Positions 1 to 26,095 of a stretch of 64,000 nt of DNA are shown here, one piece after another. Positions within the stretch are counted from its first letter, which is position 1, and each line of letters opens with the position of its first letter. Below the pieces are notes generated by a model. That model was not told the DNA's origin, made no database searches, and saw only the letters and a program-made list of their open reading frames with translations. The translations under genes were made by a program, and so were the position numbers. This stretch comes from an uncultured Spirochaetaceae bacterium (GTDB taxonomy: Bacteria > Spirochaetota > Spirochaetia > SZUA-6 > DRHE01). The stretch is taken from positions 2,992 to 66,991 of the forward strand of contig CAZPPB010000004.1 of NCBI GenBank assembly GCA_964588355.1, in the 5' to 3' direction.

Positions 1-1110
1 AGGGAATTGAGTATTGCCCGGCCACGAGGCCGCTCCCTCGCGCGCCGGGGCGTAGGCTTCCCACAGAGTGCCCTTCATGCCCTCGTCGGTATGCAGACCC
101 TCCAGGACGAAGTACAGATGCTTGATCGAGCACTCTCGAGCCAGCTCGAACTTTCCGTATTTTTCCAGTCCTTTGATGATCATATAGGTGAGGAACGGAA
201 AAACGGAACCGCGAAAGCCGTACCCCCTCTGGTCGAAGTCTTTTTCGTTGGCCGCCAGAGAAGGGAAGGGATTTTCCAATCCGAATGTCTTCGGATCGGT
301 CAGATGGGCGATCAATCCCTCCGCGCGAACCTCGTTTGGAATTTCCGCCAGCAGCGGCCAGAAAGAGGCAGCGGTTTTTACCTTTACCTGTTTCTCATCC
401 TTGTCGAGGTCGTAGTAGAAACGATCCCTGTCATTCCACATCAGAGAGCTGATGCGTGTCTTCAGAGAGAAGTAGGCTTTCTTGTATCGGTAGCTTATCT
501 CTTTGTCGTTGAGAATGTCCCCCAAAGCCGACATGTACAGGGCGTTGATGGCGACCTGGGTGTTGAAGTCGACCGGGTATTTCATGTTTTGCCGGGGACT
601 GTTGGTCATCACGGTTGCGGAAAGGGGAACGGCGTACAGGCCGTTTTCCTGTCTGCATACCCGCTCCAGCCAGGCAAAGTAACGCTCCAGGACGGGCATG
701 ATCTCCCGTACTCTCTTCTTGAGTCCAATTTTGTGGTAGATGTTGTACTCCGCCCAGGCGTACAGAGGCGGAAGGATGCCTTCGTGATTTTTCCTGCTGA
801 GTACGGGTTTGCCGTCTTTTATAGCGTATTCGCCTCGAATTGCGCCGTCGGCCTCCTGTTTATGATAGAAGTTGTCGAGCAGCGACAGCACGGGAAATAC
901 CCGATTGCTATAAACTAAAAAAAAAGTTGCCAGGATGGCTTCAAACTGATTGATCGACTCGGCGTCCGGATAGCTGAAATACTTGGGTTGGAGGCCGTTC
1001 TCGGAAGTCCCCCGCTTCCAGAAACCCTTGAGACGGTTGAAGGTATAATCGTACATATCGGTCAGGTCGTGATCGTAAAAATGCAGCTTCGGGAATTCCT
1101 TCTTACCCAC
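1..1110 (-). CDS. Glycoside hydrolase, six-hairpin (alpha/alpha)6-barrel type (GH63/GH37/mannosylglycerate-hydrolase-like). Partial: the 3' end runs off the window start.
   Basis: I translated the minus strand by hand and got an uninterrupted frame from about 1110 to 1 (…FKEVEVGKKEFPKLHFYDHDLTDMYDYTFNRLKGFWKRG…ASFWPLLAEIPNEVRAEGLIAHLTDPKTFGLENPFPSLAANEK…). A GTG at 1108-1110 is preceded by AAAGAGG. The ORF track does not list it because no stop falls inside the window. The family assignment is made by eye. Confidence 0.5.
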   Translation of the reverse strand, partial: MGKKEFPKLHFYDHDLTDMYDYTFNRLKGFWKRGTSENGLQPKYFSYPDAESINQFEAILATFFLVYSNRVFPVLSLLDNFYHKQEADGAIRGEYAIKDGKPVLSRKNHEGILPPLYAWAEYNIYHKIGLKKRVREIMPVLERYFAWLERVCRQENGLYAVPLSATVMTNSPRQNMKYPVDFNTQVAINALYMSALGDILNDKEISYRYKKAYFSLKTRISSLMWNDRDRFYYDLDKDEKQVKVKTAASFWPLLAEIPNEVRAEGLIAHLTDPKTFGLENPFPSLAANEKDFDQRGYGFRGSVFPFLTYMIIKGLEKYGKFELARECSIKHLYFVLEGLHTDEGMKGTLWEAYAPAREGAASWPGNTQFP

Positions 1111-1436
1111 TTCAACCTCTTTAAATCGACTAATACTTTGCTCTTTATTGTATCATCCCGGGGATGCACGTCAAATTTTTTACGGGAGGGTTTCGATCAC
1201 TTCCAGAGACGGCTGTCCGGATCGTTGTGTTTATGATGATACCATTTAAAAACGGCTCACAAACCAAAGATTGGCCGCTAAAGTCTTCTCTCAGAATATA
1301 TTACTGGTTTGTTGCGGTGTCAAGTTTTTTTCCTGCCCTCATCAAGGCGCATCGTCCCGCAGGTTCGGTCGCGGAGGCGGAGGGATTCTACCCATGGGTT
1401 GACACGGGCAGCGACCCTGTGTTCAATGGGCGTCAA

Positions 1437-1721
1437 ATGAAAGTCATGGAACGGGAAGAACTGGATATCACAGCTCATCTGGCTCGTCTGGAGCTGTCCG
1501 ATGAAGAAACCAAGCGATTCGAGCAGGCGGTTGTTCAAATGTTGGAGTACTTTTCGAAGATGAGAGAGTTCGATGTGGAAGGACTGCCCCCGACCGCCCA
1601 AATGACACAAACCAACCGAACCCGCAAAGATGCTGCAATCGTGAATGAAGATACCGAGGCAATCCTCGGCAACGCTCCCGAGCTCGAAGATCGTTTCATC
1701 GTTATTCCCAACGTTCTGTAA
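1437..1721 (+). CDS. gatC: Asp-tRNA(Asn)/Glu-tRNA(Gln) amidotransferase subunit C
   Basis: MKVMEREELDITAHLARLELSDEETKRFEQ… matches GatC in length (94 aa) and its N-terminal HLARLxLxxEE motif. It sits immediately upstream of gatA and gatB. The longer ORF listed from 1164 lacks any GatC-like N-terminus. The start is 1437 or 1446; neither ATG has a strong SD. Confidence 0.8.
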   Translation: MKVMEREELDITAHLARLELSDEETKRFEQAVVQMLEYFSKMREFDVEGLPPTAQMTQTNRTRKDAAIVNEDTEAILGNAPELEDRFIVIPNVL

Positions 1722-1808
1722 TCGAGGTCATTTCCAATACAGAGGAATCTGTGCGAGCATGCGCGGCCTAAACCACAGCGGATAGCCGAAATTGAGAGGG
1801 CTTGAATT

Positions 1809-3302
1809 TTGGACAAATCGGGACAGCCAAATTCCTGGAGTCGAGCGCTTGCCGACCCAGCACAGCGATCATCCTGGATGCAGTTCGTCCGCGATCGGGA
1901 CAAACAGATCCGGGCGTTCCTGCAGTTCGACCCTGAGCTCGGTCGGGAGATAGCCTCCGGAGCCGACTGCGACTCTTCCGAATCCAGCCGGACAGGTCCT
2001 TTGAGGGGAATCCCCTTCGCAGTCAAGGACAATATCGCCGTTCGCAGCTTCAAATTGACCTGCGGATCCAAACTGCTCGAAAATTTCGTTTCTCCCTACA
2101 CTGCCACGGCCGTGCAGAGGCTTTTGGAGCAGGGTGCGGTGCCTGTCGGCAAGACGAATCTCGATGAATTCGGAATGGGCTCTTCTACGGAAAACTCAGG
2201 ATTCGGCATGACCTACAATCCATGGGATCCGGCACGCGTGCCGGGCGGTTCCAGCGGCGGCTCCGCAGCCGCCGTGGCTGCCGGCATGGTTCCCTTTGCC
2301 CTCGGGTCCGACACCGGGGGCTCCGTTCGCCAGCCCGCTGCTTTCTGCGGAGTGTATGGACTCAAGCCCACCTACGGAGCTGTCTCCCGATTCGGGCTGG
2401 TGGCCTATGCCTCCTCACTGGAGATCATCGGCGTCATCGCCCGGGAGATTTCGGTGATCCGGGATGTGTTTTCGGCGATGCGGGGCAGGGACCCTCGGGA
2501 TCACAGCTCCGTCGTCTATCCCGAGGCCCAACCGGTACAGGGAAAACCCCTCACCGTGGGCGTACCGGATCTGGGATCGATTCCTCTCCATGAGGAGGTG
2601 CAGAGTTCCTGGGAGAAGACCCTGGACGTGTTGAAGAGCCTCGAGTATACCCTGAAAAAAATCGAACTGCCGACGTTGGACTACCTCGTTTCGGCGTACT
2701 ACGTCATCGCCTGTGCCGAAGCCAGCGCCAATTTGGCACGCTTCGACGGCGTTCGCTATGGAAACAGGAGCGCCGGCTTTTCAGGCAATCCCGAGCAGCT
2801 GGTCAAGTGGTCCCGCAGCCGTGGGTTGGGAGATGAGGTCAAACTTCGAATCCTCCTTGGAACCTTCGTGCTGCGCTCCGGGTTCCAGGACCAGTACTAC
2901 CTGCGGGCGCAGCGGATCCGCACGGCGATCCGCCGGGAGTTCGAAGGCGCCTTTTCCGGAGTCGATCTGATTCTCATGCCCGTCTATCCCTGCGGTCCGT
3001 TCAAGTGGGGCAGCGAGGGATTGGATCCCTTCTCCCAGAAGCTCTCCGACATCTTCACCTGCTCGGCCAACATGACAGGCCTGCCTGCCTTGAGTTTTCC
3101 CGCCTCGCTGGAGAATTCACTGCCCATCGGGATGCAGTTCCTGGCTCCCCCCTTTGCAGAAGAACGGCTCCTGCAGGCCTGTGAGCGGTTTGCCCGGGTG
3201 TTCCCGGTGCCGGCCTGCCCCCTGTACCAGCCATTGCAGTCGGCCGGAGGCAGCCGCGCCAAAGGCGGTAGCGCCCCTTCGGGAGCGCAAGGGAGGACTT
3301 AG
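1809..3302 (+). CDS. gatA: Glutamyl-tRNA(Gln) amidotransferase subunit A (amidase signature family)
   Basis: Amidase-signature blocks [10 protein letters not shown] and [14 protein letters not shown]…[12 protein letters not shown] are present. TTG start at 1809 with AGAGGG upstream. Length about 497 aa. Confidence 0.88.
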
Positions 3303-3307
3303 AACGG

Positions 3308-5692
3308 ATGTATCAGTCCTACGTCGGTTTGGAGATTCACATTCAACTGCTGACGCGAAGCAAGGTGTTCTGCAGCTGTCGGGCCGCCTTCGGAGAGGAA
3401 CCGAACAGCAACATATGTCCGGTTTGTATGGGCTACCCCGGGGTCCTGCCGGCCCTCAACGAAGAGGCGGTGCGGCAGGCCTACCTGGTCTGCCGTGCAT
3501 TGGAGTGTCGACTCAACGAGAGTGGGATCTTCGAGCGCAAGAACTACTTCTATCCCGACATGCCGAAGAACTACCAGATCTCCCAGTTCGCCTCCCCCTT
3601 CGGTGTGGAGGGCCATCTGGACCTGGAGTACCGCAAACGGAAGCGTCGCGTGAATATCAAAGAGGTGCATCTGGAGGAGGACGCAGGAAAGATGATCCAC
3701 GTCGGGGAGCTGTCCCTCCTGGACTACAACCGCGCCGGTACACCCCTGCTGGAGATCGTAACCATGCCCGACCTGGAGGTCGGAGAAGAGGCGGAGCTGT
3801 TTCTGCAAGCGTTTCGCCGTCTGGTTCGCTACCTCGGTGTCTGCGACGGCAACATGGAGGAAGGGTCCCTTCGCTGTGATGCCAATGTTTCGGTGAATCT
3901 GGAAGGTCAGGGGCTGGGAGCCAAGGTGGAGATCAAGAACCTCAACTCCTTCAAGTTTGTACGCAAAGCCCTCAACTTCGAGATCGAACGGCAGATAGAA
4001 ATTCTCGAACGGGGCGGCTCGCTCCCTCAGGAAACCCGGCTCTGGAATGAAAACCGGGACGTCACTGAGGGTATGAGAACCAAGGAGAGTGCCTTCGACT
4101 ATCGTTATTTCCCCGAACCGGATCTGCCTCCCTTTCATCCCGAAGAAAAGTTCCTCGAGTCCCTGGAAGCGGTGCTGGTGGAGCTGCCTCAGCCACGAAA
4201 AGCAAGATTCATGGAGCAGTACGGCATCGCCGAATCTCAGACGGATTTCATCTGTGAGGAAAGGAGTACGGCGGACTACTACGAACAAGTCGTAGGTTTG
4301 GGTGCCGATCCCCAGGCGGCCGCGCTGTGGTTGGCTGGGGACGTGCAGAAGATTCTCAAGAGAACCGCCGGGAACCTGACCGACTGTCCTCTGAGCCCCG
4401 AGCGTTTGGCCGAACTGCTCCGGCTTCTGGCTGCCCGCCGCATCCACGGTAAAATCGCCAAGCAGGTACTGGAGGTTATCTTCGCAGAGGATCGAAATCC
4501 CTCGGAGATCATAAAGGACCGTGGTTGGGAGCAGATTACCGACCTCAAAGAACTCGACCCGATCATCGGCCAGATCTTGAAGGAAAACGCCAAAGCGGTG
4601 CAGCAGGTCCGGGAAGGGGACTCCCGGCCATTGATTTACCTGGTCGGACAGATCATGAAGAAGACCTCGGGCAGAGCCGAACCGGGGTTGGTCAAGGTAC
4701 TGCTGAATGCCCGTTTCGAATTGTCTTTTGTCCAGGTGCTGTCCATGGGCGGTGCAATCGGGGGAACACGCACAGGGGCGGGGGAGGTTGCCGCCGGAGA
4801 TCTGAAGCAGGTTATCGACAAGCTGGGACGGGACAAGCGTTTGCCGAAGAACGTCCGTTTCGAAGAAATCGAGATCAGCCGGATCTTGAGTGAAGAGATC
4901 ACCCCGGAGGACTGGGCGGCCTTGATTGTCTCCCTGGACTCGTATTTGAAACAGGAGAACACCTCAGGTGTCGTCGTCGCCCATGGAACCGATACCCTGG
5001 CCTATACCGCGTCTCTGCTGTTCTGGTTGTTCCCTCGAGTTCCCATGCCCGTTGTGTTTACCGCGGCCCTGGATCCCCGGGACGCGGAGGAAGCGCTGAG
5101 CACCGCTATCCTGGCAGCCACGGAGCAGCCCCCCGGTGTCTACCTCAGCCTGGAAGGGAAAATTCTCTCTCCGTTGAATCTGAAGTTCGAGAAGGTCGCC
5201 CGGGATGCTTTCCGGAACTGGAACCTCGAGGAGCCGATGTTTACCAGCGGTTCCCTGCCCCTTCCTCCGCTGACCCTGACCGACAGGACCGGGCTGAGGG
5301 AGGCTCTGGAGCAGGCTATCAGCCGGGTGTGCATCCTGCAGGCGTATCCGGGAATGAAGGGGGATTATCTGATCGCCCTGATGAACGCGGGCGTGCGCTA
5401 TTTCATTCTGGAGCTCTATGACACGGGAACCGCCAATCTGCGGGAATCTCCATTTTCCCTGCGAAAAGCTTTTATAGAAGGCAAAACCAGGGGGGTCCAT
5501 TTCTTCTGCACCTCTCAGCAGGAGGGTATCGTGGATTTCTCCGGCTACGTCACCTCCCACGAGCTGTGGAGGGAGGGAGCCGTCCCCATGGGCTTTTTAA
5601 CCACTGAGAGCGCCTACACGCGTCTGCTGGCGGCAATGCTGTGTTGTGAGACCGAGGAAGAGGTGATCCACCTGATGGAGGAGTGCAGATGA
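3308..5692 (+). CDS. gatB: Asp/Glu-tRNA amidotransferase subunit B fused in frame to a C-terminal type-I L-asparaginase/GatD-like domain (aa ~472-794)
   Basis: Residues 1-~471 are a canonical GatB (MYQSYVGLEIHIQL…CPVCMGYPG…, ending …GRAEPGLVKVLLNARFEL). The single 794-aa ORF then continues without a stop into …GVVVAHGTDTLAYTASLL…FILELYDTGTAN…, which aligns by eye to E. coli AnsA/GatD blocks (HGTDTMAYTASAL; LILRSYGVGNAP). Confidence 0.85.
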   Translation: MYQSYVGLEIHIQLLTRSKVFCSCRAAFGEEPNSNICPVCMGYPGVLPALNEEAVRQAYLVCRALECRLNESGIFERKNYFYPDMPKNYQISQFASPFGVEGHLDLEYRKRKRRVNIKEVHLEEDAGKMIHVGELSLLDYNRAGTPLLEIVTMPDLEVGEEAELFLQAFRRLVRYLGVCDGNMEEGSLRCDANVSVNLEGQGLGAKVEIKNLNSFKFVRKALNFEIERQIEILERGGSLPQETRLWNENRDVTEGMRTKESAFDYRYFPEPDLPPFHPEEKFLESLEAVLVELPQPRKARFMEQYGIAESQTDFICEERSTADYYEQVVGLGADPQAAALWLAGDVQKILKRTAGNLTDCPLSPERLAELLRLLAARRIHGKIAKQVLEVIFAEDRNPSEIIKDRGWEQITDLKELDPIIGQILKENAKAVQQVREGDSRPLIYLVGQIMKKTSGRAEPGLVKVLLNARFELSFVQVLSMGGAIGGTRTGAGEVAAGDLKQVIDKLGRDKRLPKNVRFEEIEISRILSEEITPEDWAALIVSLDSYLKQENTSGVVVAHGTDTLAYTASLLFWLFPRVPMPVVFTAALDPRDAEEALSTAILAATEQPPGVYLSLEGKILSPLNLKFEKVARDAFRNWNLEEPMFTSGSLPLPPLTLTDRTGLREALEQAISRVCILQAYPGMKGDYLIALMNAGVRYFILELYDTGTANLRESPFSLRKAFIEGKTRGVHFFCTSQQEGIVDFSGYVTSHELWREGAVPMGFLTTESAYTRLLAAMLCCETEEEVIHLMEECR

Positions 5693-6993
5693 GGACGATG
5701 CTCGCACGGATCAACGAACATGCGGCTGAGGAGGTCGAGGTCCGGGGTTGGGTGCACCGTATCCGCGAGCTGGGGAAGATCTCCTTCATCCTGCTTCGGG
5801 ATGTGTCGGGAATGGCGCAGCTGGTCGTGGATGCGGGATCAAGTTCCGGGGAGGTTGCTCAGACCGCTTCCCGGCTGACCCTGGAATCGGTTATTTCAGC
5901 GCGGGGCAGGGTGGCTGAAAACGGCAAGGCTCCCGGCGGTTTCGAGGTTCAGGTTTCTGAGCTGGAGGTGGTAGCCAGGGCCGAGCCGGACCTGCCACTG
6001 GCGGTCAATCAGGACCCGGACAAGGTATCCCTGGATACGATTCTAGAGCACAGAATGATAAGCTTGCGGAATCCCAAGATCCTGTCGGTCTTCCGGCTTC
6101 AATCTTCGATCCTCGAGCTCTTTGCCGAGCACATGCGCAGCGAGGGGTTCACCGAGATCAAGACCTCCAAGCTGATCGGTACCGGGACAGAGGGAGGAAC
6201 CGGGCTTTTTGCCGTGGAGTACTTCGACACCAAGGTATTTCTGGCCCAGTCCCCCCAGTTCTACAAGCAGGCCATGGTTTCCTCGGGCCTGGAGCGGGTG
6301 TTCGAGATCGGCTGCGCCTACAGGGCGGAGAAGCATGAAACCCCGCGGCATCTCAACGAGTACGTGTCGCTGGACGTGGAGACCGCCTGGATCGAAAGCG
6401 AGCAGGATCTGATGGATCTGGAGGTGCGGATTCTCAAAACCATCTTCGAAGGCGTAGAGCGGGAAAATGCCGAGGTGCTGCAGCAGTGGCAGGCTGCCGT
6501 GCCCTCTGCCGAGCAGGTCGAGAACATCCCCCGGATTTCCCACGATGAAGCCAAAGAAACGATCAGCACTCTAGGCGGGAAAAAAGTCTACGAGGTCAAT
6601 CCTGAGGGCGAGCGGATTCTCTGCGACTGGGCGCTGAAGGAGCACGGTGTAGAAGCGGCGTTTATCTTCGGCTGGCCCAGAAAAAAACGTCCCTTCTACA
6701 CCTATCCCCTAGATGCCCGCACCACCATGTCCTTCGACCTTCTGTTCCGGGGGCTGGAGGTCACCACGGGGGGAAGACGCATCAATGAGTATCCCATGCT
6801 TCTGGAGAATATCGAGCTGTTCGGCCTGCAGCCGTCTTCACTGAGCGACTACATCCAGATCTTCAAGTACGGCTGCCCTCCCCACGGGGGCTTCGCCATC
6901 GGCCTGGAGAGGCTGACCCAGAAGATCCTGGGTCTGGCCAACGTCAAAGAGGCCTCCCTGTTCCCCAGGGATCGGCGCCGAATCAGGCCCTAG
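5689..6993 (+). CDS. aspS: Aspartyl-tRNA synthetase, archaeal/eukaryal type 2 (likely non-discriminating)
   Basis: 435 aa with no GAD insertion. Class II motifs are present (GFTEIKTSKLIG…FYKQ…GCAYRAE…GGFAIGLERL). The ATG at 5689 is preceded by GGAGGAG and overlaps the gatB stop, which suggests translational coupling. Adjacent to gatCAB. Confidence 0.85.
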   Translation: MRTMLARINEHAAEEVEVRGWVHRIRELGKISFILLRDVSGMAQLVVDAGSSSGEVAQTASRLTLESVISARGRVAENGKAPGGFEVQVSELEVVARAEPDLPLAVNQDPDKVSLDTILEHRMISLRNPKILSVFRLQSSILELFAEHMRSEGFTEIKTSKLIGTGTEGGTGLFAVEYFDTKVFLAQSPQFYKQAMVSSGLERVFEIGCAYRAEKHETPRHLNEYVSLDVETAWIESEQDLMDLEVRILKTIFEGVERENAEVLQQWQAAVPSAEQVENIPRISHDEAKETISTLGGKKVYEVNPEGERILCDWALKEHGVEAAFIFGWPRKKRPFYTYPLDARTTMSFDLLFRGLEVTTGGRRINEYPMLLENIELFGLQPSSLSDYIQIFKYGCPPHGGFAIGLERLTQKILGLANVKEASLFPRDRRRIRP

Positions 6994-11272: not shown

Positions 11273-12181
11273 CTATCGCCGGATCATGAGGGCAGTTTCC
11301 TCCTGGACATAGAGAAAGAAACAGGTGGTGGGGGGATTCCCAAAAAGACTGTGGGCTCCCAGAGATACGTCCTGCAGGAACAGTGAGCCGTCGGCGTCCG
11401 CCGGCACCTGGATACGGAAGGGGGATTCGAGGAACCAGCTGCCCTGCCCCGGCTGCAGCAGCAGATCCCGGCTGGGAGCAAGCCGGATGTCGGTCACGCG
11501 AAAAGTCTCAGCTGCCAGCCGGGCGCAGATCCGGTTCAGATCGAGTGCCCAGGGGTCTGCCTGACAGAGTAAGGACATTTCCCGGCTCAGCCGCGGGACG
11601 TCGATGGCAGAACAATCCACCCCCTGCCGCCAGAGACGGTACAGAACCTCCGCTGTCGCCCCCTCATGCCAACTGAGGCTGATGGCGTTGGTGATGTCGC
11701 AGTCCAGGGGATATACCCCCCCGGCGGGCGCAAGAGGCAGAGACTGCTCGGGAAGATTCGGATAGGCCAGAACCGGAAGGTAGAGGATTTTCGGCAGCTC
11801 GAGGTCAACGCCGGCACCGTTGTCGACCTGTTGTTCTTCGAAACCGCCGTTCTCGCTTGAAGGATAGACGATGCGGAAAGCCAGCTCGGGGAATGCTTCC
11901 CGCCAGTGCGGCGGGAGCGGAGGCAGGTGAACCGCCACGGACACGGTGGGGGAATAGAAGCTGCAGGAACAGAGCAGCTGCATCAGACAGACCAGTACCG
12001 CTGTTCCTGGAGCCGATGAGAGGCGGAAGGAAAGGGGCCGGCGACCGGTTGAGAGCTTCGGCAACGGATCGTACATTCTACAAGAATACAACGACCGGGA
12101 TTGGGGATATACTTCTATCAGTCGTTTGTAACACCAATCGTTCGTAAAACTCGGAGGCGCAATTATACCTTGATAACTCAA
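11273..12181 (-). CDS. Hypothetical protein (no recognisable domain). The true start is probably internal, near 11980-12080.
   Basis: It is the longest ORF in the region (302 aa), and the plus strand there has only short junk ORFs. The upstream 12050-12207 is AT-richer and looks intergenic. There is no recognisable motif. Confidence 0.35.
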   Translation of the reverse strand: MSYQGIIAPPSFTNDWCYKRLIEVYPQSRSLYSCRMYDPLPKLSTGRRPLSFRLSSAPGTAVLVCLMQLLCSCSFYSPTVSVAVHLPPLPPHWREAFPELAFRIVYPSSENGGFEEQQVDNGAGVDLELPKILYLPVLAYPNLPEQSLPLAPAGGVYPLDCDITNAISLSWHEGATAEVLYRLWRQGVDCSAIDVPRLSREMSLLCQADPWALDLNRICARLAAETFRVTDIRLAPSRDLLLQPGQGSWFLESPFRIQVPADADGSLFLQDVSLGAHSLFGNPPTTCFFLYVQEETALMIRR

Positions 12182-12207
12182 TACAGCTGCTCTATATTAG
12201 TGGCTAC

Positions 12208-14367
12208 ATGGTACCATTGAAGCAGCTGGAGGCCACGGTTACCCCTCTTCCCCGGGGCGGATACCTGGTGAACTCTCCTGAAGGATATATCCAATTCGGG
12301 TCTCCCCCGGAAACGATCAAAGACACAATGGCCCTGCCCGAGTCGGTCCCAAGGATCTTCGTCCTGCCCCGAGCCATGTTTGATTGGCGCAAGGGCATCA
12401 ACCTGGCCGACCTCGAGTTCCCCATCTACTACAACTTCTTTCTTCAACAGAAGAAAACCCGGGTTGTCTGTACCCGAGGTCAGGCCGCACGATTCATGAA
12501 AGCCCTGCAGCAGGCGCTGTTCGGACCCAAAGAGTTTTACATCGAGGGGGATGTGGTGGGTTCGGACGGGGGAAGATACGTGCCGGCCGTGGGCAGCGAG
12601 TTGAAATATTTCCGCGGCACGATCCGTTTTCGGGATGTCCTGGAGCTCTCGCTGTTCGACAAAGGCGATTTTTCCATCGGAAAGGTGCGTATCTCGATAG
12701 ACAGTAACGGGGATTTCGAGGTCTTCTTCGGGGCCAAAAAGACAGCCCACATTCCCGGGGTCATTCCCTGCAAGCCGATGTACCAGATCGGGCAGCGGCT
12801 GCCCGAACCCTACAAACCCCCGCTGTTCGGAGTAACCTGTCTGGGACCCAGCCACGGTTTCGATCCCACGGCCAACACTTCCGGCTACATCATCTGGCTG
12901 AATCACGCGGGAATCATGATCGATCCGCCGATCAACTCGACTGAGTGGCTGGAGTCCTCCAACGTGAATCCAAAGCTCATCGACAGCATCATCCTGACCC
13001 ATTGTCATGCGGATCATGATGCAGGAACCCTCCAGAAGATACTGGAAGAGGGCAAGATCACCGTATACTCCACCAAAACCGTCATGCGCAGCTTTCTCAA
13101 GAAGTACTCCTCCCTCACCGGAGAGCCGGTCTCCTATCTGGTTCGGCTGTTCGAGTTTCGACCCGTTTATATCGGAAAACCCGTCTTCATCCACGGCGGG
13201 CAGTTCAACTTCCACTACATGCTGCACTCCATCCCCACAATCGGTTTTACCCTGAAGTTCCAGGATCAGACCTTCGTCTATTCCTCCGATCATCAGGGCG
13301 ATCCGGTTGTGCAGAAGAAGCTGCTCGACCAGAAGGTGATCGACCAAGAGCGTTACCGGCAGCTGCAGAACTTTCCCTGGGACAGTGATGTGATTTATCA
13401 CGAATCGGGAATCGCGCCCCTGCACACACCGATCGCTTATCTGAACTCGCTGCCGAAAAAAATACAGAAGAAGACGGTTGTATACCATATCGCCAAGAAG
13501 GATTTCCCAAAAAACACGAGCCTTACCCTGGCCACCTTCGGTATCGAAAACACCCTCTACTTCAAGACCAAGGCTCCCGCGTACGAAAAAACCTACATGA
13601 TCTTGAACGCCCTGAAGCATCTCGATTTTTTCGAGACTCTGAACGTGGAAAAAACCCAGGAGTTCGTGACAATCGTCGAAGCCCGGAAGGTAAACAAGGG
13701 AGATCACATCATCCGCAAAGGGGAAGTCGGGAAGTACTTCTACATCATTCGCACGGGAAACGTCTCGATCAAGCAGGAGGGACTGATCGGCCGTAAGCTG
13801 CTCGGTACCTATGAGTACTTCGGTGAAGTAGCGCTTCTCAGTGAGGTTCCCCGAACCGCGGATGTGGTGGCCGAAACCGACGTTCTTCTCTATGCCATCG
13901 AGAAGGACAAATTCCTGAGTTTCATCCACGGGACCGATTTCGAGAAGACCCTTCGTCGTCTGATCGCCAATCGGAGTATCGAAACCTGGAATATCATGGA
14001 GGGCAGCACCTACCTGCAGCACCTGACCACCTTCCAGAAAACCTGGCTGGAATCGATCCTGGTGCCTAAAGAATTCGAAAAACCGGGGGATTTGATCAAA
14101 GAGGGGAAATCCCTGGAGCAGTTTTTCATAATCAGGGAAGGGGAGGTGGAGGTCAGCAGGGACGGACGGGTCGTGGCCGCTCTGGGCAGAGGTGACTGCA
14201 TCGGCGCCCTTCACAGGATTCACGGCGATGAAATGGCGGAATTCAGTGTCCGCCACAAAGCTCCGCTGTCCGTGTTCGCCGTGGAGAGAAACGATCTGCT
14301 CGATTTCCTGGAAGGCAATCCCGGGATCGGCATGAAGCTGGCCTACGACTACCAACTACGGGGATAG
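12208..14367 (+). CDS. Metallo-beta-lactamase-fold protein with two C-terminal cyclic-nucleotide-binding domains (putative class-II-like cNMP phosphodiesterase)
   Basis: MBL/class-II-PDE metal motif ILTHCHADHDAG. Two CNB (Crp-like) domains follow (…YFGEVALLSEVPRTADVVAETDVLLYAIEK… and …GDCIGALHRIHGDEMAEFSVRHKAPLSVFAVERNDL…). The overlapping 725-aa minus ORF (12178..14355) is an antisense shadow. Confidence 0.7.
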   Translation: MVPLKQLEATVTPLPRGGYLVNSPEGYIQFGSPPETIKDTMALPESVPRIFVLPRAMFDWRKGINLADLEFPIYYNFFLQQKKTRVVCTRGQAARFMKALQQALFGPKEFYIEGDVVGSDGGRYVPAVGSELKYFRGTIRFRDVLELSLFDKGDFSIGKVRISIDSNGDFEVFFGAKKTAHIPGVIPCKPMYQIGQRLPEPYKPPLFGVTCLGPSHGFDPTANTSGYIIWLNHAGIMIDPPINSTEWLESSNVNPKLIDSIILTHCHADHDAGTLQKILEEGKITVYSTKTVMRSFLKKYSSLTGEPVSYLVRLFEFRPVYIGKPVFIHGGQFNFHYMLHSIPTIGFTLKFQDQTFVYSSDHQGDPVVQKKLLDQKVIDQERYRQLQNFPWDSDVIYHESGIAPLHTPIAYLNSLPKKIQKKTVVYHIAKKDFPKNTSLTLATFGIENTLYFKTKAPAYEKTYMILNALKHLDFFETLNVEKTQEFVTIVEARKVNKGDHIIRKGEVGKYFYIIRTGNVSIKQEGLIGRKLLGTYEYFGEVALLSEVPRTADVVAETDVLLYAIEKDKFLSFIHGTDFEKTLRRLIANRSIETWNIMEGSTYLQHLTTFQKTWLESILVPKEFEKPGDLIKEGKSLEQFFIIREGEVEVSRDGRVVAALGRGDCIGALHRIHGDEMAEFSVRHKAPLSVFAVERNDLLDFLEGNPGIGMKLAYDYQLRG

Positions 14368-14372
14368 GTTTT

Positions 14373-16805
14373 TCAAGATCTTTCCAGCTCGATCCGATGA
14401 GCCTGCTCAAACAACGCGGCATGCGCGGGTTGGCAGGTGAAAACCACCAGCTGCTGTGTTTCGGCGAACCGGGCCAGGATGGCGGCTGCCCGCTGCTGCC
14501 TCTCCGGGTCCAGATCCACCAAAGGATCATCTAGGAGAAGAAACCCATCCTTCGGCCCGAGGAAAAACTCCGCCATGGCCAGACGAAGTGCCAATGCGAA
14601 CAGATCCTTCGTGCCCGCCGAAAGCAGATCGTAGGGAAGAACCCGGCCGTCCCTGCGAATCACCCCCGCGGGAAGAGCATCATCAGCGGGGACGTTTCGA
14701 TACCTGTCGTTGCTCAAGGTGGCCAGATAGCGGGACACCAGAGTGATGAACGGTTCATAGATCCCTCGGTCCAGCTGTTCGAGAAGCTCTGAGGTGGCCT
14801 TTTGGATCCGGACCAGGACCTCGGCTTTCTTCAACTGGCTGTTGAATTGTTCGCGAGCAGCCTCCATTCGCTGGGCCGCCTCTTCACTCGATTCGTCGGG
14901 AAGCAAAGCTTCGGCGTTACGGCAGTCACTGTCCAGACGGATCCGGTTCTGGGTAAGGGACTGAACCTCTTCGGCCAGCCGATTGTAGTCATCGAGAAGG
15001 GATTGAGTTTCCGTATAGCCTTCCGGAAGGGGGGCAAGGCCGTTTGTTTTCTCGGCGATCTCCAGTTTGGCGCCCCCGAATTCAGCGATTCGGGCGAACA
15101 GGCTGTCCTTGTCCCCATACTGTACTTGGAGGCTTTCGAGGGATCGCCGGATCTCCTCCAATTGGGATTGGAGACTCTGAAGCCGGTTGCGCTTGCCTAC
15201 GAGTTCTTCCAACACCTGGCTCTGCTCCCGACCAGGAGGGGTATCCGGACTTTCGCCGCGGGCCGCCTCCAGAGCTTCGAAGCTGTCGCTGCCCAGTTCC
15301 TGTTCATATACCGCTTTTGCCGTCCGGGCTTCGGCAAACCGCTCCTCGTAGCGCCGACTCGCTTCCACGGCTTCATCCACCGAAGAGACCTTCAGCTCCC
15401 CTAACAGTGCTGTGTGACGGGTTTTGGCCTGTTCGTATTGCTCTGCGATTTGCTCGAACTCTCCCTGCCCGGAGTAGACTTCCAAACTCCAGTTTGGATG
15501 ACGCATCTCGATCTTTCCGGAGGCCTCCACCGTCAGGCTCTTGCCCGCTGCCAGGTGCTGCTCCGCAGCTTCTTGCAGGTCTTTTTGGATCCCCACATCA
15601 ACCGCTTCCCGGGCGTGGAAGACCAGCGAGAGGTTTCCCGCCTGCGCAGCCGCCTGCAGCCGCTCGATCTGCGCCGCGCTGTCCCGAAGCCGGTCCAATT
15701 CCCGGCGGGGCAGAGGCAGCAATGAGCTCAGCTGTGATTCAGCCTGCTCCAGGCGTTGCCGCTTGTCTTGAAGTCGCCGGAACCGTTCTATGAGGTCCTT
15801 TCTGTCCAGATAGTTTTGGACCTGTTTTTTTTCCAATTCCAGAGCCTGCACCGATTGCTCCAGCTCGGGGATTTCCCGTTCCAGGGTTTCCCGGCGAAGG
15901 AGGTTTTTCGTCCAACCGTCATAGTCGGATTGCGCCTCCTTTAGGGAAAGCTCCGTTTCCTTGAGCCTGGCCTCGAGGACGCTGCGCTTTTGCGCGTCCT
16001 TCACCCCTGGCTCGATGCTCTTGAGCCGTTCCTGCTTCTCTGCCAGCTCCCGGTTGCAGCTTTCCAACTGGTCGGTGATCGTTCCGTAGGAGACTTCCTT
16101 TTCTTTGATCTCCTGAAAGTGCGATTCCGCATCTTCCAGGTCGTAATAAGCCCCCAAAACAGTTCCCTTTTCCCGGGTCCAGCGGGCCTCTCCGCCCCGC
16201 TTTTTCTCGGGCTGCTGCCGCTGCAGGTCCCAATGCCGAAGCTGCCCCTGGTAGCGGCTCTCCAGCGTTTCCTGGAACCGACCCACGGAAACCCCTTCGG
16301 TCTCCAGCACGCTGTGATGCAGCAGATCGGAGAGTCCGTACATCGTCTCCTTTTCCGTCTGCAGCTGTTCGAGGGTGGTCGCCAGACCGGATTGCCGGGT
16401 CAACAGGACCGTCCGCAGCGTTCCCGGATGAACCGGCAGGAGCGTCAGAAGATGTGCCTCAACTGCCGCCGCGTCGGCGAGTCGAGAACCGTCGGGAAGT
16501 TGTAGCTCCGCTTCCGTTTTTGCGCCCCAGCTTTTTTCGAGCCGGTAGGACTCGTCCGCCACCCGAAACTCCAAGGCGGCACAGACCGTGTCACCGCCGC
16601 CTATCGGAAGGAGAGGTTGGATCAGGTCTTGGAAGCTGCGTTTGTTGAGCTTTACCGGGGTCAGCAGGAGGTGCTGCAGAGCCCGGAAGAGGGTGGATTT
16701 CCCCGCCTCATTGGGTCCGAGAATGATATTAAGTCCCGGTTTCAACTCGATGCCCAGTGAGGCCAGCACGCCGAAAGAGGTGACCTGGAGAGTGGACAGA
16801 ATCAC
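14373..16805 (-). CDS. SbcC/Rad50-family AAA ATPase with long coiled coil (B. subtilis SbcE/YhaN-like)
   Basis: N-terminal Walker A (LNIILGPNEAGKSTLFRAL), a long central heptad-rich region, and C-terminal signature/Walker B (LLLDDPLVDLDPERQQ). It overlaps the upstream SbcD-like gene by 4 nt. Confidence 0.75.
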   Translation of the reverse strand: MILSTLQVTSFGVLASLGIELKPGLNIILGPNEAGKSTLFRALQHLLLTPVKLNKRSFQDLIQPLLPIGGGDTVCAALEFRVADESYRLEKSWGAKTEAELQLPDGSRLADAAAVEAHLLTLLPVHPGTLRTVLLTRQSGLATTLEQLQTEKETMYGLSDLLHHSVLETEGVSVGRFQETLESRYQGQLRHWDLQRQQPEKKRGGEARWTREKGTVLGAYYDLEDAESHFQEIKEKEVSYGTITDQLESCNRELAEKQERLKSIEPGVKDAQKRSVLEARLKETELSLKEAQSDYDGWTKNLLRRETLEREIPELEQSVQALELEKKQVQNYLDRKDLIERFRRLQDKRQRLEQAESQLSSLLPLPRRELDRLRDSAAQIERLQAAAQAGNLSLVFHAREAVDVGIQKDLQEAAEQHLAAGKSLTVEASGKIEMRHPNWSLEVYSGQGEFEQIAEQYEQAKTRHTALLGELKVSSVDEAVEASRRYEERFAEARTAKAVYEQELGSDSFEALEAARGESPDTPPGREQSQVLEELVGKRNRLQSLQSQLEEIRRSLESLQVQYGDKDSLFARIAEFGGAKLEIAEKTNGLAPLPEGYTETQSLLDDYNRLAEEVQSLTQNRIRLDSDCRNAEALLPDESSEEAAQRMEAAREQFNSQLKKAEVLVRIQKATSELLEQLDRGIYEPFITLVSRYLATLSNDRYRNVPADDALPAGVIRRDGRVLPYDLLSAGTKDLFALALRLAMAEFFLGPKDGFLLLDDPLVDLDPERQQRAAAILARFAETQQLVVFTCQPAHAALFEQAHRIELERS

Positions 16806-17953
16806 CGCTTCTGCTCCTGCATCAGGGTGTAGGCGGTCTGGAGAGCCTCGAAATCTTTCTGGGCGATCAGCTGTTTGAGCAGCCTGTAGGGAAAGGACCC
16901 TTCAGTGAACTCCGCCTCGACGTTCTGTTCGCTGATCCGCTCCAAAACTTCGCTGTCGTCGATCTGGGCGTAGAAATACGCTTTCTCCAATTCTGCCAGC
17001 TGCCGGCGGAGTTCGAACAGCTGTTCCGCCTCCAGACGTCCGCGAAGCTTCAGCTTCAGCAGGGTCTTGTCCGATTCCCCACTGTGGAGTTCTTTCACAA
17101 CACGCTGCAGATCGGCAAGCCTTTCCAGTGTGTGCTCTTCCCGAACGAAACGGTAGGTTCCGCTGGACAAGGACTCCAGGCGTATCTGCTTGTTTTCATC
17201 AGCTTCGATCATCCAGGCTGTTCCGCCGTGGCGGCAGTCGAAACCGTCGGGTTCGGGGGTTCCGGGTATCAACACAGCCGGGGAGGCGGCCGGGGCGACC
17301 TTGACCCTGTCTATTTCGGAAGGAAGCTGACGGTGAGTGTGCCCGATGATCCAGAGGTCGACGGGGGCTTCCTCCAGCTGCCTGCGGGTCATCGGAAAGT
17401 AGACCCCTTGAGTGTCCGGAGAAACTCCTTCGATGCTTCCGTGGGCCACACCGATGCGAAGCGTCCCCTGCCGGGCTTGCGGGTATTCACCCGGAGCTTC
17501 GGTGTCCCTCAGCCAGGATATGGCACTGTCCTTGCTGTGTTTGCTGTCGCAGGGACCTGCAAACAGATGGATATTCAGGTCGTAGTGGTTGAGATCATAG
17601 ATACGGCTGTCCTGCAGCAGCAGGATGCGATCCCCCGCTGCTTCGCTGAAGCGGGACCAGAGGGAGCTGGGGTTCCCGCTGTAGAAGTCATGGTTTCCCG
17701 GCAGTACAGCCGCCAGCCGGCCGTGAAAGCCATCGAGCAGTGCCACGGCGCGTCCTACATCCTTGGCGGAGACACTCACCCTGTCGAACAGATCGCCGGC
17801 GACAAGAAACAGATCGCAGTCCGACTGGTTTGCCCGATCCACGAGGCGTTTCAGCGAGAGAAAGCGGGCTTCCGCCAGCTGTTCCTGGACGTTCGGGTAT
17901 CCGGCGAACTTCATGCCCAGATGATAATCCGCGCTGGCTAATATCTTCACCAT
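16802..17953 (-). CDS. SbcD/Mre11-family metallophosphoesterase (DNA repair exonuclease, SbcF/YhaO-like)
   Basis: Calcineurin-like phosphoesterase motifs (ADYHLG…GDLFD…GNHDF…GHTHRQ). It is translationally coupled to the downstream ATPase gene. Confidence 0.8.
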   Translation of the reverse strand: MVKILASADYHLGMKFAGYPNVQEQLAEARFLSLKRLVDRANQSDCDLFLVAGDLFDRVSVSAKDVGRAVALLDGFHGRLAAVLPGNHDFYSGNPSSLWSRFSEAAGDRILLLQDSRIYDLNHYDLNIHLFAGPCDSKHSKDSAISWLRDTEAPGEYPQARQGTLRIGVAHGSIEGVSPDTQGVYFPMTRRQLEEAPVDLWIIGHTHRQLPSEIDRVKVAPAASPAVLIPGTPEPDGFDCRHGGTAWMIEADENKQIRLESLSSGTYRFVREEHTLERLADLQRVVKELHSGESDKTLLKLKLRGRLEAEQLFELRRQLAELEKAYFYAQIDDSEVLERISEQNVEAEFTEGSFPYRLLKQLIAQKDFEALQTAYTLMQEQKR

Positions 17954-23832: not shown

Positions 23833-23861
23833 TTGACAGAAACCACAATTATTCTTAAAAT
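23833..23861 (+). promoter_or_regulatory. Putative sigma70-type promoter of the lrp-gcv unit (-35 TTGACA 23833-23838, 17-nt spacer, -10 TAAAAT 23856-23861). Predicts a leaderless or near-leaderless lrp mRNA.
   Basis: A consensus -35 and a good -10 at optimal spacing in an AT-rich divergent intergenic region. The -10 ends only 8 nt before the lrp ATG at 23870. Confidence 0.35.
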
Positions 23862-23869
23862 GATGATCA

Positions 23870-24313
23870 ATGAAGATCGACCAGACCAACATCGGCATCA
23901 TCAGGCATCTGCGGGACGGCCGGAAGTCCTACAAGGAGATCGCCGACGACCTCTCGATCACGGAGAACACGGTGCGCTCCCGGGTTCAGCAGATGACCCG
24001 GGAGGGGGTGCTTTCCATCACGGGCCTGATCGATGCGCAGAAGGTTCCCGGGCACCGCATGGTGCTGGTGGGGATCAAGCTGGACACGATGAACCTGGTC
24101 AAGAAGGGGGAGGAGTTCAGCCGACTCAAAGGGGTCGTGTCGGTGGCCGTGGTCACCGGCCGCTACGACCTGATCCTCACGGTACTTCTGCGGGAGGACT
24201 TCGGATTGCTGGAGTTTTACACCCAGGAGGTGGACAAGATCGAGGAGGTCAGCTCTGCCGAGACCTTCGTCGTATACAAAGGGTACAATCTGGATGTACC
24301 CTATATCTTGTAG
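23870..24313 (+). CDS. Lrp/AsnC family transcriptional regulator
   Basis: MKIDQTNIGIIRHLRDGRKSYKEIADDLSITENTVRSRVQQM… (HTH_AsnC) plus a RAM/ligand-binding domain. 147 aa. Confidence 0.8.
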   Translation: MKIDQTNIGIIRHLRDGRKSYKEIADDLSITENTVRSRVQQMTREGVLSITGLIDAQKVPGHRMVLVGIKLDTMNLVKKGEEFSRLKGVVSVAVVTGRYDLILTVLLREDFGLLEFYTQEVDKIEEVSSAETFVVYKGYNLDVPYIL

Positions 24314-24342
24314 TTCAGGATCCCAAAGCACAGGAGGAATTC

Positions 24343-24735
24343 ATGGAGATACCCAAAGGTCTAAAATACGCCAAGACCCACGAATGGGTGCGGGTTGAGG
24401 GGGATGTGGCCTACATCGGCATCAGCGACTATGCGCAGGAGGAGCTGGGGGATATCGTGTACGTGGAAATACCCTCTGTCGGTGACAGCTACCAAAAGGG
24501 TGAAGAGGCGGCAACCGTCGAATCGGTCAAGGCGGCTTCAGCCATCTATACCCCCGTCGCCGGCACCGTAAAAGAGATCAATGCGGAACTCGAGGACACC
24601 CCCGAGTTGATCAATCAGAAGCCCTATCAGGCCTTCATCTTCGCCGTCCACTTCTCCGATGCCTCCGGGTTGGATGAGCTTTTGGATGCTGAGAGCTACC
24701 AGAAGCACGTGGAGCAGGAGAAGGCCAGTCACTAG
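24343..24735 (+). CDS. gcvH: Glycine cleavage system protein H (lipoyl carrier)
   Basis: MEIPKGLKYAKTHEWVRVEGDVAYIGISDYAQEELGDIVYVEIP… with the lipoyl-lysine context. AGGAGG 5 nt upstream. The ORF-track extension back to 23833 is an artefact. Confidence 0.9.
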   Translation: MEIPKGLKYAKTHEWVRVEGDVAYIGISDYAQEELGDIVYVEIPSVGDSYQKGEEAATVESVKAASAIYTPVAGTVKEINAELEDTPELINQKPYQAFIFAVHFSDASGLDELLDAESYQKHVEQEKASH

Positions 24736-24748
24736 AGGACCAAATTCT

Positions 24749-26095
24749 ATGATCGCTTATCTTCCCCATACCGAAGAGGACATCAAAACGATGCTCGAGG
24801 CGGCCGGCATCACCGACATCGAGCAGCTGTTCGCCGATGTGCCCCGTGACCTGGTTCTGCGCAAACCCCTTGGGATCCCGGAGGGAGTCTCCGAGTTCGA
24901 GGTGTACAGGCGGATGAAAGCCCTGGCGGCAGGAAACCGGGTGGAGCCTGTCAGCTTTCTCGGCTGCGGCAGCTACCAGCACATCATCCCAGCAGCTGTA
25001 GGGCATGCTCTCTCCCGCTCGGAGTTCTACACTTCCTACACGCCGTACCAGGCTGAGATGTCTCAGGGAATCCTTCAGGCCATCTTCGAGTTCCAGACCA
25101 TGATCTGCGAGCTGACCGGACTGGAGGTGTCCAATGCCTCCCTGTACGACGGACACACAGCCGTCAGCGAGGCGGCCGTCCTGGCCCTGAACAGCGTGCG
25201 CCGCTCGGACACCATCCTCTATTCGAGTACCCTTCACCCGTTCACCCGACAGGTGCTCAAGACCCATTTCGCCAACCTGCCGGTCAAACTCGAGGAGGTC
25301 CCCGCGGACAGAGGCACAACCGACCTGGAGGAGCTGGTTGAAAGGCTTCGGCCCGGAGTAGCGGGTGTGGTTCTTCAGAGCCCCAACACCCTCGGCTACA
25401 TCGAAGATCTGAGCGGCCTTGCCGACAAGGTACACGAAAACGGTTCCCTGCTGATCATCTCTGCCAATCCTCTTTCCCTGGGTCTGCTCAAACCGCCGGG
25501 GGAATGGGGTGCAGACATAGCGGTCGGGGATACTCAGCCCCTTGGGCTGCCGTCCTACTTCGGAGGACCCTCGGTGGGCTACATCGCGGCCACCGAAAAG
25601 CTGTTGCGCAAGATGCCCGGACGCATCGCCGGCCAGTCCCTGGACCAGGAGGGCGCTCGCGCCTTTCTGCTCACACTGCAGGCCCGGGAGCAGCACATCA
25701 AACGAGAGCGAGCCACTTCGAATATTTGCTCCAACCAGGCACTGGCCGCGCTGGCCACGACGGTGTATCTGGCCTCCCTGGGCAGACGGGGCATCCGGGA
25801 GGTTGCTGAACAGAATCTGCACAAGGCTCACTACCTCCACGGGCGACTGCTCGAACAGACGCCGGTAGAAGCACTGTACGACCAGCAGTTTTTCAACGAG
25901 TTCCCCGTGGTACTTCCCAGACCGGCCGCCGAGGTATTGCCCCGCATGGAGGAAGCGGGATTCTACGCCGGCGTGGAACTTCATCGCCTCGACCCGACGC
26001 TCCCGGAGGGGGCGCTGCTGATCGCTGTTACCGAACGGCGAACACGGGAGGAGATGGATGCATACGTGGAGGCAATGAAGGGGGCAATCCAATGA
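24749..26095 (+). CDS. gcvPA: Glycine dehydrogenase (decarboxylating) subunit 1
   Basis: [21 protein letters not shown]…[15 protein letters not shown]…[11 protein letters not shown]… is typical of GcvPA. About 448 aa. Confidence 0.9.

Follow-up and report, generated by a model that had tools for sequence, protein, structure and literature searches.

In the genome of an uncultured Spirochaetaceae bacterium, the gene for GatB, a subunit of the tRNA-dependent amidotransferase GatCAB, continues in frame into an asparaginase-like domain. The stretch of DNA analysed here (hereafter, the window) comprises 64,000 nucleotides (assembly GCA_964588355.1, contig CAZPPB010000004.1, positions 2,992 to 66,991 of the forward strand), and the open reading frame (ORF) in question is a single, lineage-wide fusion. 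To judge from its residues, the added module is probably a conserved pseudo-asparaginase, i.e. a protein that is no longer an asparaginase or a glutaminase, and it probably builds or regulates an enzyme complex rather than supplying ammonia. By analogy with known complexes, the best explanation, which is put forward tentatively, is that this dead asparaginase-fold module at the GatB C-terminus would act as a dimerising scaffold, possibly also ligand-binding, for the asparagine transamidosome.

In the textbook view, the tRNA-dependent amidotransferases are alternatives to each other: (i) GatCAB obtains its ammonia by means of an amidase; and (ii) archaeal GatDE does so by means of an asparaginase. 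The bacterial GatCAB described here carries both ammonia-enzyme folds, the asparaginase one being apparently silenced yet strongly conserved.

A lineage-wide fusion of GatB with an asparaginase-like domain

A previous reading of this DNA, made from the sequence only, had proposed that a complete GatB continues in frame into an asparaginase-like domain. This proposal is borne out by an open frame of 794 amino acids (aa), with zero internal stops or frameshifts, and by four Pfam domain matches, all of which exceed the gathering scores (Table 1). On the NCBIfam models, the first 470 aa reach 595 bits with the GatB equivalog NF004012 (cut-off 338) and 538 bits with TIGR00133 (cut-off 315). These 470 aa correspond to an orthodox GatB with its catalytic residues present and with gatC and gatA encoded just upstream; but whereas known GatB proteins, at about 475 aa, have the YqeY tail as their last part, the window protein carries a further 320-aa asparaginase fold. 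The YqeY tail of known GatB proteins binds the D-loop of the tRNA.

AlphaFold2 models the full-length protein with a pLDDT of 90.5 and a pTM of 0.65, and the asparaginase-like domain alone with a pLDDT of 93.6 and a pTM of 0.93. In the full-length model, the junction is bounded by the last helix of YqeY (459-469) and by the first strand of the asparaginase fold (473-480). According to Foldseek (target-normalised TM scores), the N-terminal half matches solved GatB chains (3ip4, 2g5i, 3kfu, 4wj3) with values of 0.83-0.93 and the C-terminal half matches Thermococcales asparaginases with a value of about 0.8. In its predicted structure, the module folds as an asparaginase and displays the two-domain architecture of that fold, which agrees with the Pfam matches of the C-terminal region.

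The possibility that two neighbouring genes were joined by a sequencing or assembly error is practically nil, and it is refuted by the breadth of independent assemblies that read through: over 260 cluster representatives, independent of one another and drawn from NCBI, JGI, ENA and Logan, span the junction with conserved sequence. Every full-length relative reads through, and the frameshift or stop at the junction that would have indicated two separate genes was not found in the window.

Fusion proteins of this kind were searched for in a collection of 5.8 billion proteins, and their taxon names were taken from the source annotations. At least 120 cluster representatives were listed that measure 750-821 aa, contain all four Pfam domains and share 61-100% identity with the window protein; apart from these, a Treponema group and a third group were found. 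The representatives come from NCBI, JGI, ENA and Logan and, where named, belong to metagenome-assembled genomes (MAGs) of Spirochaetia, Spirochaetales or Spirochaetaceae. A scan of genome contigs with the window protein gave six close relatives. An exhaustive HMMER search with the asparaginase-like part alone retrieved 34 representatives below 1e-30, nearly all of them fusions of about 800 aa or fragments of such fusions; after them there is a gap in the list, followed by free-standing asparaginases at about 1e-24, the nearest of which show some 30-35% identity.

The fusion proteins can be divided into three groups: (i) group 1, to which the window protein belongs, with 147 representatives from Spirochaetia; (ii) group 2, with 117 representatives from Treponema and Treponemataceae, including T. 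brennaborense, in which the catalytic residues of GatB are degenerate; and (iii) group 3, with 12 metagenomic representatives in which those residues are intact. In group 1, Glu149 and Asn193 of GatB are present in 147 of 147 proteins and His11 in 142, the other five being gapped at this position. In an alignment of 115 relatives, E9, H11, K78, E123, E124, D125, E149 and N193 are invariant, and D191 is found in 114. In group 2, His11 is replaced by Arg in 115 of 117 proteins, E149 by Arg, D191 by Asn and N193 by Tyr or Phe, and the motifs FERKNYFYPD and DYRYFPEPD have been lost.

The comparison with the genomic loci of relatives, labelled L006 to L022, also yielded an observation of a different kind. 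In the relative L006, a 1464-aa ORF (923-5317) on a long-read MAG contig seemingly links the C-terminus of GatA to GatB, the asparaginase-like domain and the aspartyl-tRNA synthetase AspRS. Such a GatB-asparaginase-AspRS triple fusion was rejected, since tblastn finds gatA, the fused gatB and aspS each split across frames; the breaks point to indel errors in that contig, and the pseudo-fusions of L006 are the product of frameshifts.

A full-text search of the literature found no paper describing the fusion, and no model in Pfam or NCBIfam covers the combination of GatB and asparaginase. This agrees with the sequence-only reading, which knew of no description of this architecture. The sequences themselves were already public under generic names, including that of the cultured Treponema brennaborense. 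Group 2 proteins (777-800 aa) are named "asparaginase domain-containing protein" at NCBI, while other Treponema entries are called "Asn/Gln amidotransferase". The fusion proteins, currently called either plain "GatB" or "asparaginase", need renaming.

Catalytic positions and conservation of the module

GatD and the asparaginases work by means of a Thr nucleophile and of a triad made up of Thr, Lys and Asp (PMC2330236). In the window protein, the block that corresponds to the nucleophile reads SMGGAIGG (aa 479-486), with Ala483 at the nucleophile position. The earlier claim that both Thr of the TGGT block had been replaced is correct for this nucleophile; the first T of the E. coli-style TGGT, on the other hand, is non-catalytic and not conserved (the active P. 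furiosus asparaginase and one GatD read MGGT), so that only one catalytic Thr has been lost, not two. The second conserved block, HGTDT, had been placed at about nucleotide 4982, exactly where it begins. The window protein possesses the complete Thr-Asp-Lys triad (T561, D562, K626), although the equivalence of Lys626 is probable only: HMMER matches it with the Lys of four solved asparaginases, and in the MAFFT alignment it lies one column off. No counterpart of the Tyr of the P. furiosus lid loop can be aligned with the fusion domain.

The state of these positions differs among the groups. In group 1 (n = 147), the nucleophile position is occupied by Ala in 142 proteins, Ser in two, and Thr, Arg and Val in one each; Ser528, Thr561 and Asp562 are invariant, and the position of Lys626 is held by Lys in 121 and by Arg in 26 (18%). 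All 12 proteins of group 3 have Ala at the nucleophile position and Leu at that of Thr561, and the triad Lys is not kept. In group 2, the nucleophile position drifts (Ala in 60, Thr in 38, Ser in 18) and the second triad is mostly kept. The nucleophile Thr has, therefore, become Ala specifically where GatB is functional, that is, in groups 1 and 3. Among 103 free-standing homologues, by contrast, the nucleophile Thr is found in 98, the second Thr in 98, the Asp in 99 and the Lys in 85. The Glu at the position of residue 529 is also the commonest residue in these free-standing relatives (62 of 103). The motifs LSE[EN] and ELY..GT are common to them as well, which indicates that they were inherited from a bacterial type I/GatD-like subfamily and not invented by the fusion.

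The nearest free-standing relatives belong to an uncurated subfamily of bacterial asparaginases with LSEN and ELYxSGT motifs, and it is with this subfamily that LSE[EN] and ELY..GT are shared. With the type I L-asparaginases (P. furiosus 4q0m, T. kodakarensis 5ot0, E. coli AnsA) the module has in common the two-domain fold, HGTDT, and the Ser and Lys positions; it differs from them in the Ala at the place of the nucleophile Thr, in the absence of the lid Tyr, and in not being free-standing. It lacks the nucleophile Thr of GGT(I) and stays below the curated scores of the active family, with 99-103 bits on TIGR00519 (cut-off 260.5) and 66-70 bits on PRK09461 (cut-off 376).

Archaeal GatD, in turn, is a separate subunit that has its own N-terminal domain and a Thr nucleophile and that supplies ammonia (PMC2330236), whereas the module is fused to the C-terminus of a bacterial GatB instead of having GatE as its partner, has Ala at the nucleophile position, and is accompanied by a GatA encoded upstream. 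On the GatD models it reaches 88-91 bits (cut-offs 310 and 324), as against 471-502 bits for true GatD proteins (P0245, P0221), and its match begins at GatD position 57-78 approximately, which means that the GatD N-terminal domain is absent. It departs from GatD in score, N-terminal domain and nucleophile. As to the term "GatD/AnsA-like" used in the earlier reading, the domain resembles GatD no more than it does the usual asparaginases of type I; a specific origin from GatD was discarded on the same grounds, i.e. no better match to the GatD models than to the type I models and no GatD N-terminal domain.

Two interpretations had been offered from the beginning. According to one of them, the module would be a second ammonia-generating site; it would then have to be an active glutaminase or asparaginase with a non-canonical nucleophile that feeds GatB as GatD feeds GatE. 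The completeness of the asparaginase fold and the retention of Thr561-Asp562-Lys626 in the window protein speak in its favour. Nevertheless, given that the nucleophile is missing (Thr is present in a single group 1 protein), that Lys and Arg are exchanged in group 1, that the second Thr has been lost in group 3 and that GatA is intact and always co-encoded, this interpretation is very unlikely; the lack of a lid Tyr also argues against it, and so does the fact that asparaginases whose Thr is mutated to Ala are practically inactive. The Lys, cis-Ser and Ser motifs of GatA (FAVKDN, GGSSGGS and GSDTGGS) are present in the translation, as read by eye. According to the other interpretation, the module is a pseudo-asparaginase that would have been recruited for structure or regulation, which fits the counts of Ala in groups 1 and 3, the counts of Thr in the free-standing relatives, and the strong purifying selection.

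Regarding this selection, five close relatives with unsaturated dS gave dN/dS values of 0.07-0.15 for the asparaginase-like part, 0.02-0.07 for the GatB cradle, and 0.11-0.17 for the tail: purifying selection thus acts on the module as strongly as on the tRNA-binding tail of GatB. Within group 1, the mean pairwise identity amounts to 81% in the cradle, 61% in the YqeY tail, 60% in the asparaginase N-subdomain and 72% in the C-subdomain; between groups 1 and 2, the corresponding values are 35%, 38%, 44% and 47%. In conservation, the C-subdomain ranks second within group 1, behind the cradle, and first between groups 1 and 2, the asparaginase-like part as a whole being the most conserved region between these two groups. 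Such low dN/dS values and such regional conservation indicate that the module is functional, though not as an asparaginase.

Operon context and candidate roles

The fused gene is part of a gatC-gatA-gatB::asparaginase-aspS operon (Table 1), and leuS comes after aspS in the window. The AspRS scores 516 bits as aspartate--tRNA(Asn) ligase (cut-off 353) and 407 bits on aspS_nondisc (cut-off 368); since it lies above both curated cut-offs, it is classified as an archaeal-type non-discriminating (ND) enzyme. An ND-AspRS is thus encoded alongside GatCAB, as would be expected of an asparagine transamidosome. The ATG of aspS overlaps the stop of gatB (ATGA, 5689-5692), with an alternative GTG start at 5683, and the module is located exactly between GatB and this translationally coupled aspS. 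No AsnRS, GlnRS or asparagine synthetase is encoded by the 30 larger window ORFs that were scanned, a set that excludes several other large ORFs and the majority of the small ones.

Table 1. Coordinates of the fused gene, its domains and motifs, and the neighbouring genes in the window
Feature	Position	Strand	Evidence and remarks
MGH1-like/trehalase-like glycoside hydrolase, 5' part, running off the window start	1..1152	-	Pfam MGH1-like_GH 8e-31
gatC	1437..1721	+	Pfam GatC 3e-15; ATG at 1437
gatA, amidase-type glutaminase	1809..3302	+	Pfam Amidase 1e-133; ATG at 1878 may be the true start
gatB::asparaginase-like fusion ORF	3308..5692	+	794 aa; AlphaFold2 mean pLDDT 90.5
GatB cradle (kinase/transamidase) domain, aa 5-283	3320..4156	+	Pfam GatB_N 1e-111; catalytic residues intact
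GatB helical/YqeY tail domain, aa 323-468	4274..4711	+	Pfam GatB_Yqey 5e-39
Junction, about three residues, aa 470-472	4715..4723	+	AlphaFold2 secondary structure and sequence
Asparaginase-fold N-terminal domain, aa 475-640	4730..5227	+	Pfam Asparaginase 2.4e-25
Codon GCA of Ala483, where active enzymes have the catalytic nucleophile Thr (Thr11 in the P. furiosus asparaginase)	4754..4756	+	Alignments
Ser528-Glu529-Glu530 (LSEE), counterpart of the substrate-binding Ser and its neighbours	4889..4897	+	S528 invariant in all groups
HGTDT block, aa 559-563, with second-triad Thr561 and Asp562 kept	4982..4996	+	Alignment
Lys626, probable equivalent of the triad Lys	5183..5185	+	HMMER alignment
Asparaginase-fold C-terminal domain, aa 673-789, with ELYDTGTAN and CTSQQ motifs	5324..5674	+	Pfam Asparaginase_C 2e-9
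aspS, archaeal-type non-discriminating AspRS, 436 aa, no GAD domain	5689..6993	+	NCBIfam

The same gene order is found at L007, L009, L012, L018 and L020, whose fusion proteins share 38-63% identity with that of the window. The start of aspS overlaps the stop of gatB in the window and at L007, L009, L012 and L018, and at L020 the two are separated by a gap of 21 nucleotides. The divergent hydrolase at the window start is likewise a neighbour at L007, L009, L020, L021 and the Treponema loci L011 and L015-L017, and it anchors the synteny; a 303-aa ORF at 7-918 (+) is probably spurious, the minus-strand hydrolase being the real gene.

Two loci are natural "minus-domain" controls: (i) L021 (6001-7425), from Spirochaetia bacterium 38H-sp, has the same operon and flanking hydrolase, with a 474-aa GatB that lacks the asparaginase-like domain; and (ii) L022 (6001-7437), from the nearest unfused relatives of group 3, has the same operon, again with a GatB devoid of the domain (474-478 aa in the two loci). 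The existence of the operon without the module indicates that the latter is an add-on at the GatB-AspRS junction: the gatCAB-aspS operon was there first, and the 3' end of its gatB then acquired the module.

The Treponema loci L011 and L015-L017 offer a different picture: the degenerate fusion adjoins the same hydrolase, and gatC, gatA and aspS are absent from the locus. One of them (L016, 10001-12334) is the fusion orthologue of Treponema brennaborense CP002696. These entries have an orthologous architecture at the same locus, with 35-47% identity depending on the region, but differ from the window in the replaced catalytic residues of GatB, in the absence of gatCA and aspS from the locus, and in the variable nucleophile position (Ala, Thr or Ser). 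Judging from these residues, neither half seems to have kept its original chemistry; even so, the protein is conserved in 117 cluster representatives.

As to the role of the module where GatB is functional, ammonia would still come from GatA, and the module would keep the intimate homodimer typical of asparaginase-fold proteins, thereby providing a built-in protein scaffold that would pair two GatCAB units, matching the dimeric AspRS of the asparagine transamidosome. All known asparaginase-fold proteins are built on an intimate homodimer, and in the canonical enzymes of this fold the C-terminal subdomain forms much of the dimer interface. The homodimer of GatD is, moreover, the core of the alpha2-beta2 GatDE complex (PMC2330236). 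A dimerising scaffold is favoured for these reasons: the dimer is common to the known proteins of the fold; GatD offers a precedent; the C-terminal subdomain, which includes much of the canonical interface, is highly conserved; and the domain outlives the loss of pocket residues in group 3.

Among the close known systems is the asparagine transamidosome of Thermus thermophilus, formed with tRNAAsn, which has the same components, namely GatCAB and an archaeal-type ND-AspRS without GAD domain, and which requires a non-substrate scaffold tRNA for its stability (PMC3367201). There the scaffold is that tRNA, whereas here the C-terminal module of GatB is proposed for this function. Gene fusions within indirect aminoacylation have precedents in AspRS-GatC (NF009460) and GlnRS-YqeY (NF011291), models to which the proteins studied here give weak partial matches; those fusions join functional parts of the pathway, while the one in the window would join a dead enzyme fold that is foreign to the GatCAB pathway.

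The retained pocket (Ser528, Thr561, Asp562 and Lys or Arg626) may, in addition, accommodate a ligand similar to Asn or Asp and leave it unhydrolysed. On this basis, a serious rival or addition to the scaffold can be conceived, although it is rather unlikely: the module would be a ligand sensor whose pocket binds free Asn (or Asp, Gln or Glu) with no hydrolysis and whose occupancy allosterically tunes GatCAB or AspRS, which would give end-product control of tRNA-dependent asparagine synthesis. Consistent with a sensor, group 1 is changed at the nucleophile only, with the other pocket residues invariant and residue 626 basic. Furthermore, Ala is held in 97% of group 1, in contrast with the drift among Ala, Thr and Ser in the Treponema proteins with a dead GatB, a contrast that has the appearance of a hydroxyl being selected against, and not of simple decay. 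To go by the titles of the structures 7c8x and 5dnc, laboratory asparaginases with this substitution have been crystallised with intact Asn bound, and would thus trap it. The laboratory mutants B. licheniformis T13A and guinea-pig T19A, which are top or near-top structural matches of the module, carry the same substitution at the same position; those were engineered, while the Ala of the fusion is natural and held at about 97% across the lineage. The partner of the module, an archaeal-type ND-AspRS, is also of the structural type of the Thermus asparagine transamidosome. On the other side, group 3 keeps the domain even though Thr561 and the Lys are gone from it, there is no Tyr of the lid loop, and binding is a prediction from sequence.

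Several points weigh against a dimerising scaffold as the explanation of the fusion. The scaffolding role is argued by analogy, and the pTM of 0.65 for the full-length model leaves the placement of the module relative to GatB uncertain. At least two lineages run the operon without the module, which is hence not essential to the gatCAB-aspS system. A module that served as a scaffold and nothing else would not need Ser528, Thr561 and Asp562 to be kept as strictly as they are in group 1, which speaks for ligand binding. Finally, Treponema keeps the fusion with a dead GatB and without gatC, gatA or aspS at the locus, which suggests a function independent of transamidation and AspRS; the persistence of this relic limits the confidence that can be placed in any explanation confined to the transamidosome.

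The Treponemataceae are also a reason to consider that the GatB tail and the module form a tRNA- or metabolite-binding unit with a role of its own, the link to GatCAB being secondary. The retention of the orthologue at the same locus agrees with such a unit, as does the comparison of groups 1 and 2, in which no region is better conserved than the asparaginase-like part. It is, however, distinctly improbable: in group 1 the catalytic residues of GatB are invariant or nearly so within a textbook transamidation operon, and nothing points to what the independent role would be.

Another use of the dimerising tendency of the fold would be that of a docking handle, in which the dead domain forms a heterodimer with an active protein of the asparaginase fold that is free-standing, and in this way ties to GatCAB a source of ammonia similar to GatD, or some other partner. 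A candidate partner does exist at the group 3 loci L012-L014, where a 655-aa asparaginase-domain protein with an intact TGGT is encoded in the same operon, overlapping gatC. But neither the operon of the window nor L007, L009, L020 and the group 3 locus L018 contain this gene. A docking handle is given a low probability, below that of an independent role. As a general partner, the 655-aa protein was rejected because it occurs only at L012-L014, and not at L018 or at any group 1 locus.

The protein is in itself peculiar. It is encoded directly upstream of gatC (4276-6243 at L012, and likewise at L013 and L014), it has matches to both the N- and the C-terminal asparaginase domains, and its motifs are in an unusual order, with HGTDT near aa 180 before the TGGT near aa 305. 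Its N-terminus looks receiver-like (RVYFIDDD...), and it is preceded by a 252-aa protein with no Pfam match, the pair being confined to a subset of group 3 loci.

A bolder combination of the above, which is unlikely, though less so than either of the last two alternatives, would make the dead pocket a receptor for Asn, the end product: two such domains would pair two GatCABs on a dimeric ND-AspRS, Asn at the interface would throttle aspartylation or transamidation, and in Treponema the sensor and the tRNA-binding tail would survive as a stand-alone regulator. If true, this would be the first allosterically feedback-regulated synthesis of an amino acid on tRNA. In any case, the module is a natural and widespread candidate pseudoenzyme for the study of transamidosome assembly or regulation, it suggests a way in which the synthesis of asparagine on tRNA might be controlled by feedback, and in Treponema it is part of an uncharacterised conserved protein whose two halves appear to be without their original chemistry.

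Other features of the window

Some other ORFs of the window have unusual domain combinations. At 27561-30290 (+), a 909-aa ORF contains an aminomethyltransferase domain (GCV_T, aa 6-255) and a serine hydroxymethyltransferase domain (SHMT, aa 463-864); it adjoins gcvH (23833-24735) and a gcvP subunit (26092-27564), and looks like another enzyme fusion. A 633-aa ORF at 50310-52214 (-) combines a DAHP synthase ferredoxin-like domain, DAHP_synth_1, prephenate dehydratase and ACT, and the relative L009 has, cut off at the end of its locus, a gene that shares the DAHP synthase and prephenate dehydratase domains. Similarly, a nucleotidyltransferase (NTP_transf_3) is joined to a galactokinase-like GHMP kinase in an 899-aa ORF at 58350-61049 (+). 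Lastly, two ORFs of 301 and 724 aa at 11273-14355 (-), neither of them with a Pfam match, are the immediate downstream neighbours of the genes for an SbcC-like ATPase (14373-16805) and for a metallophosphoesterase (16802-17953).

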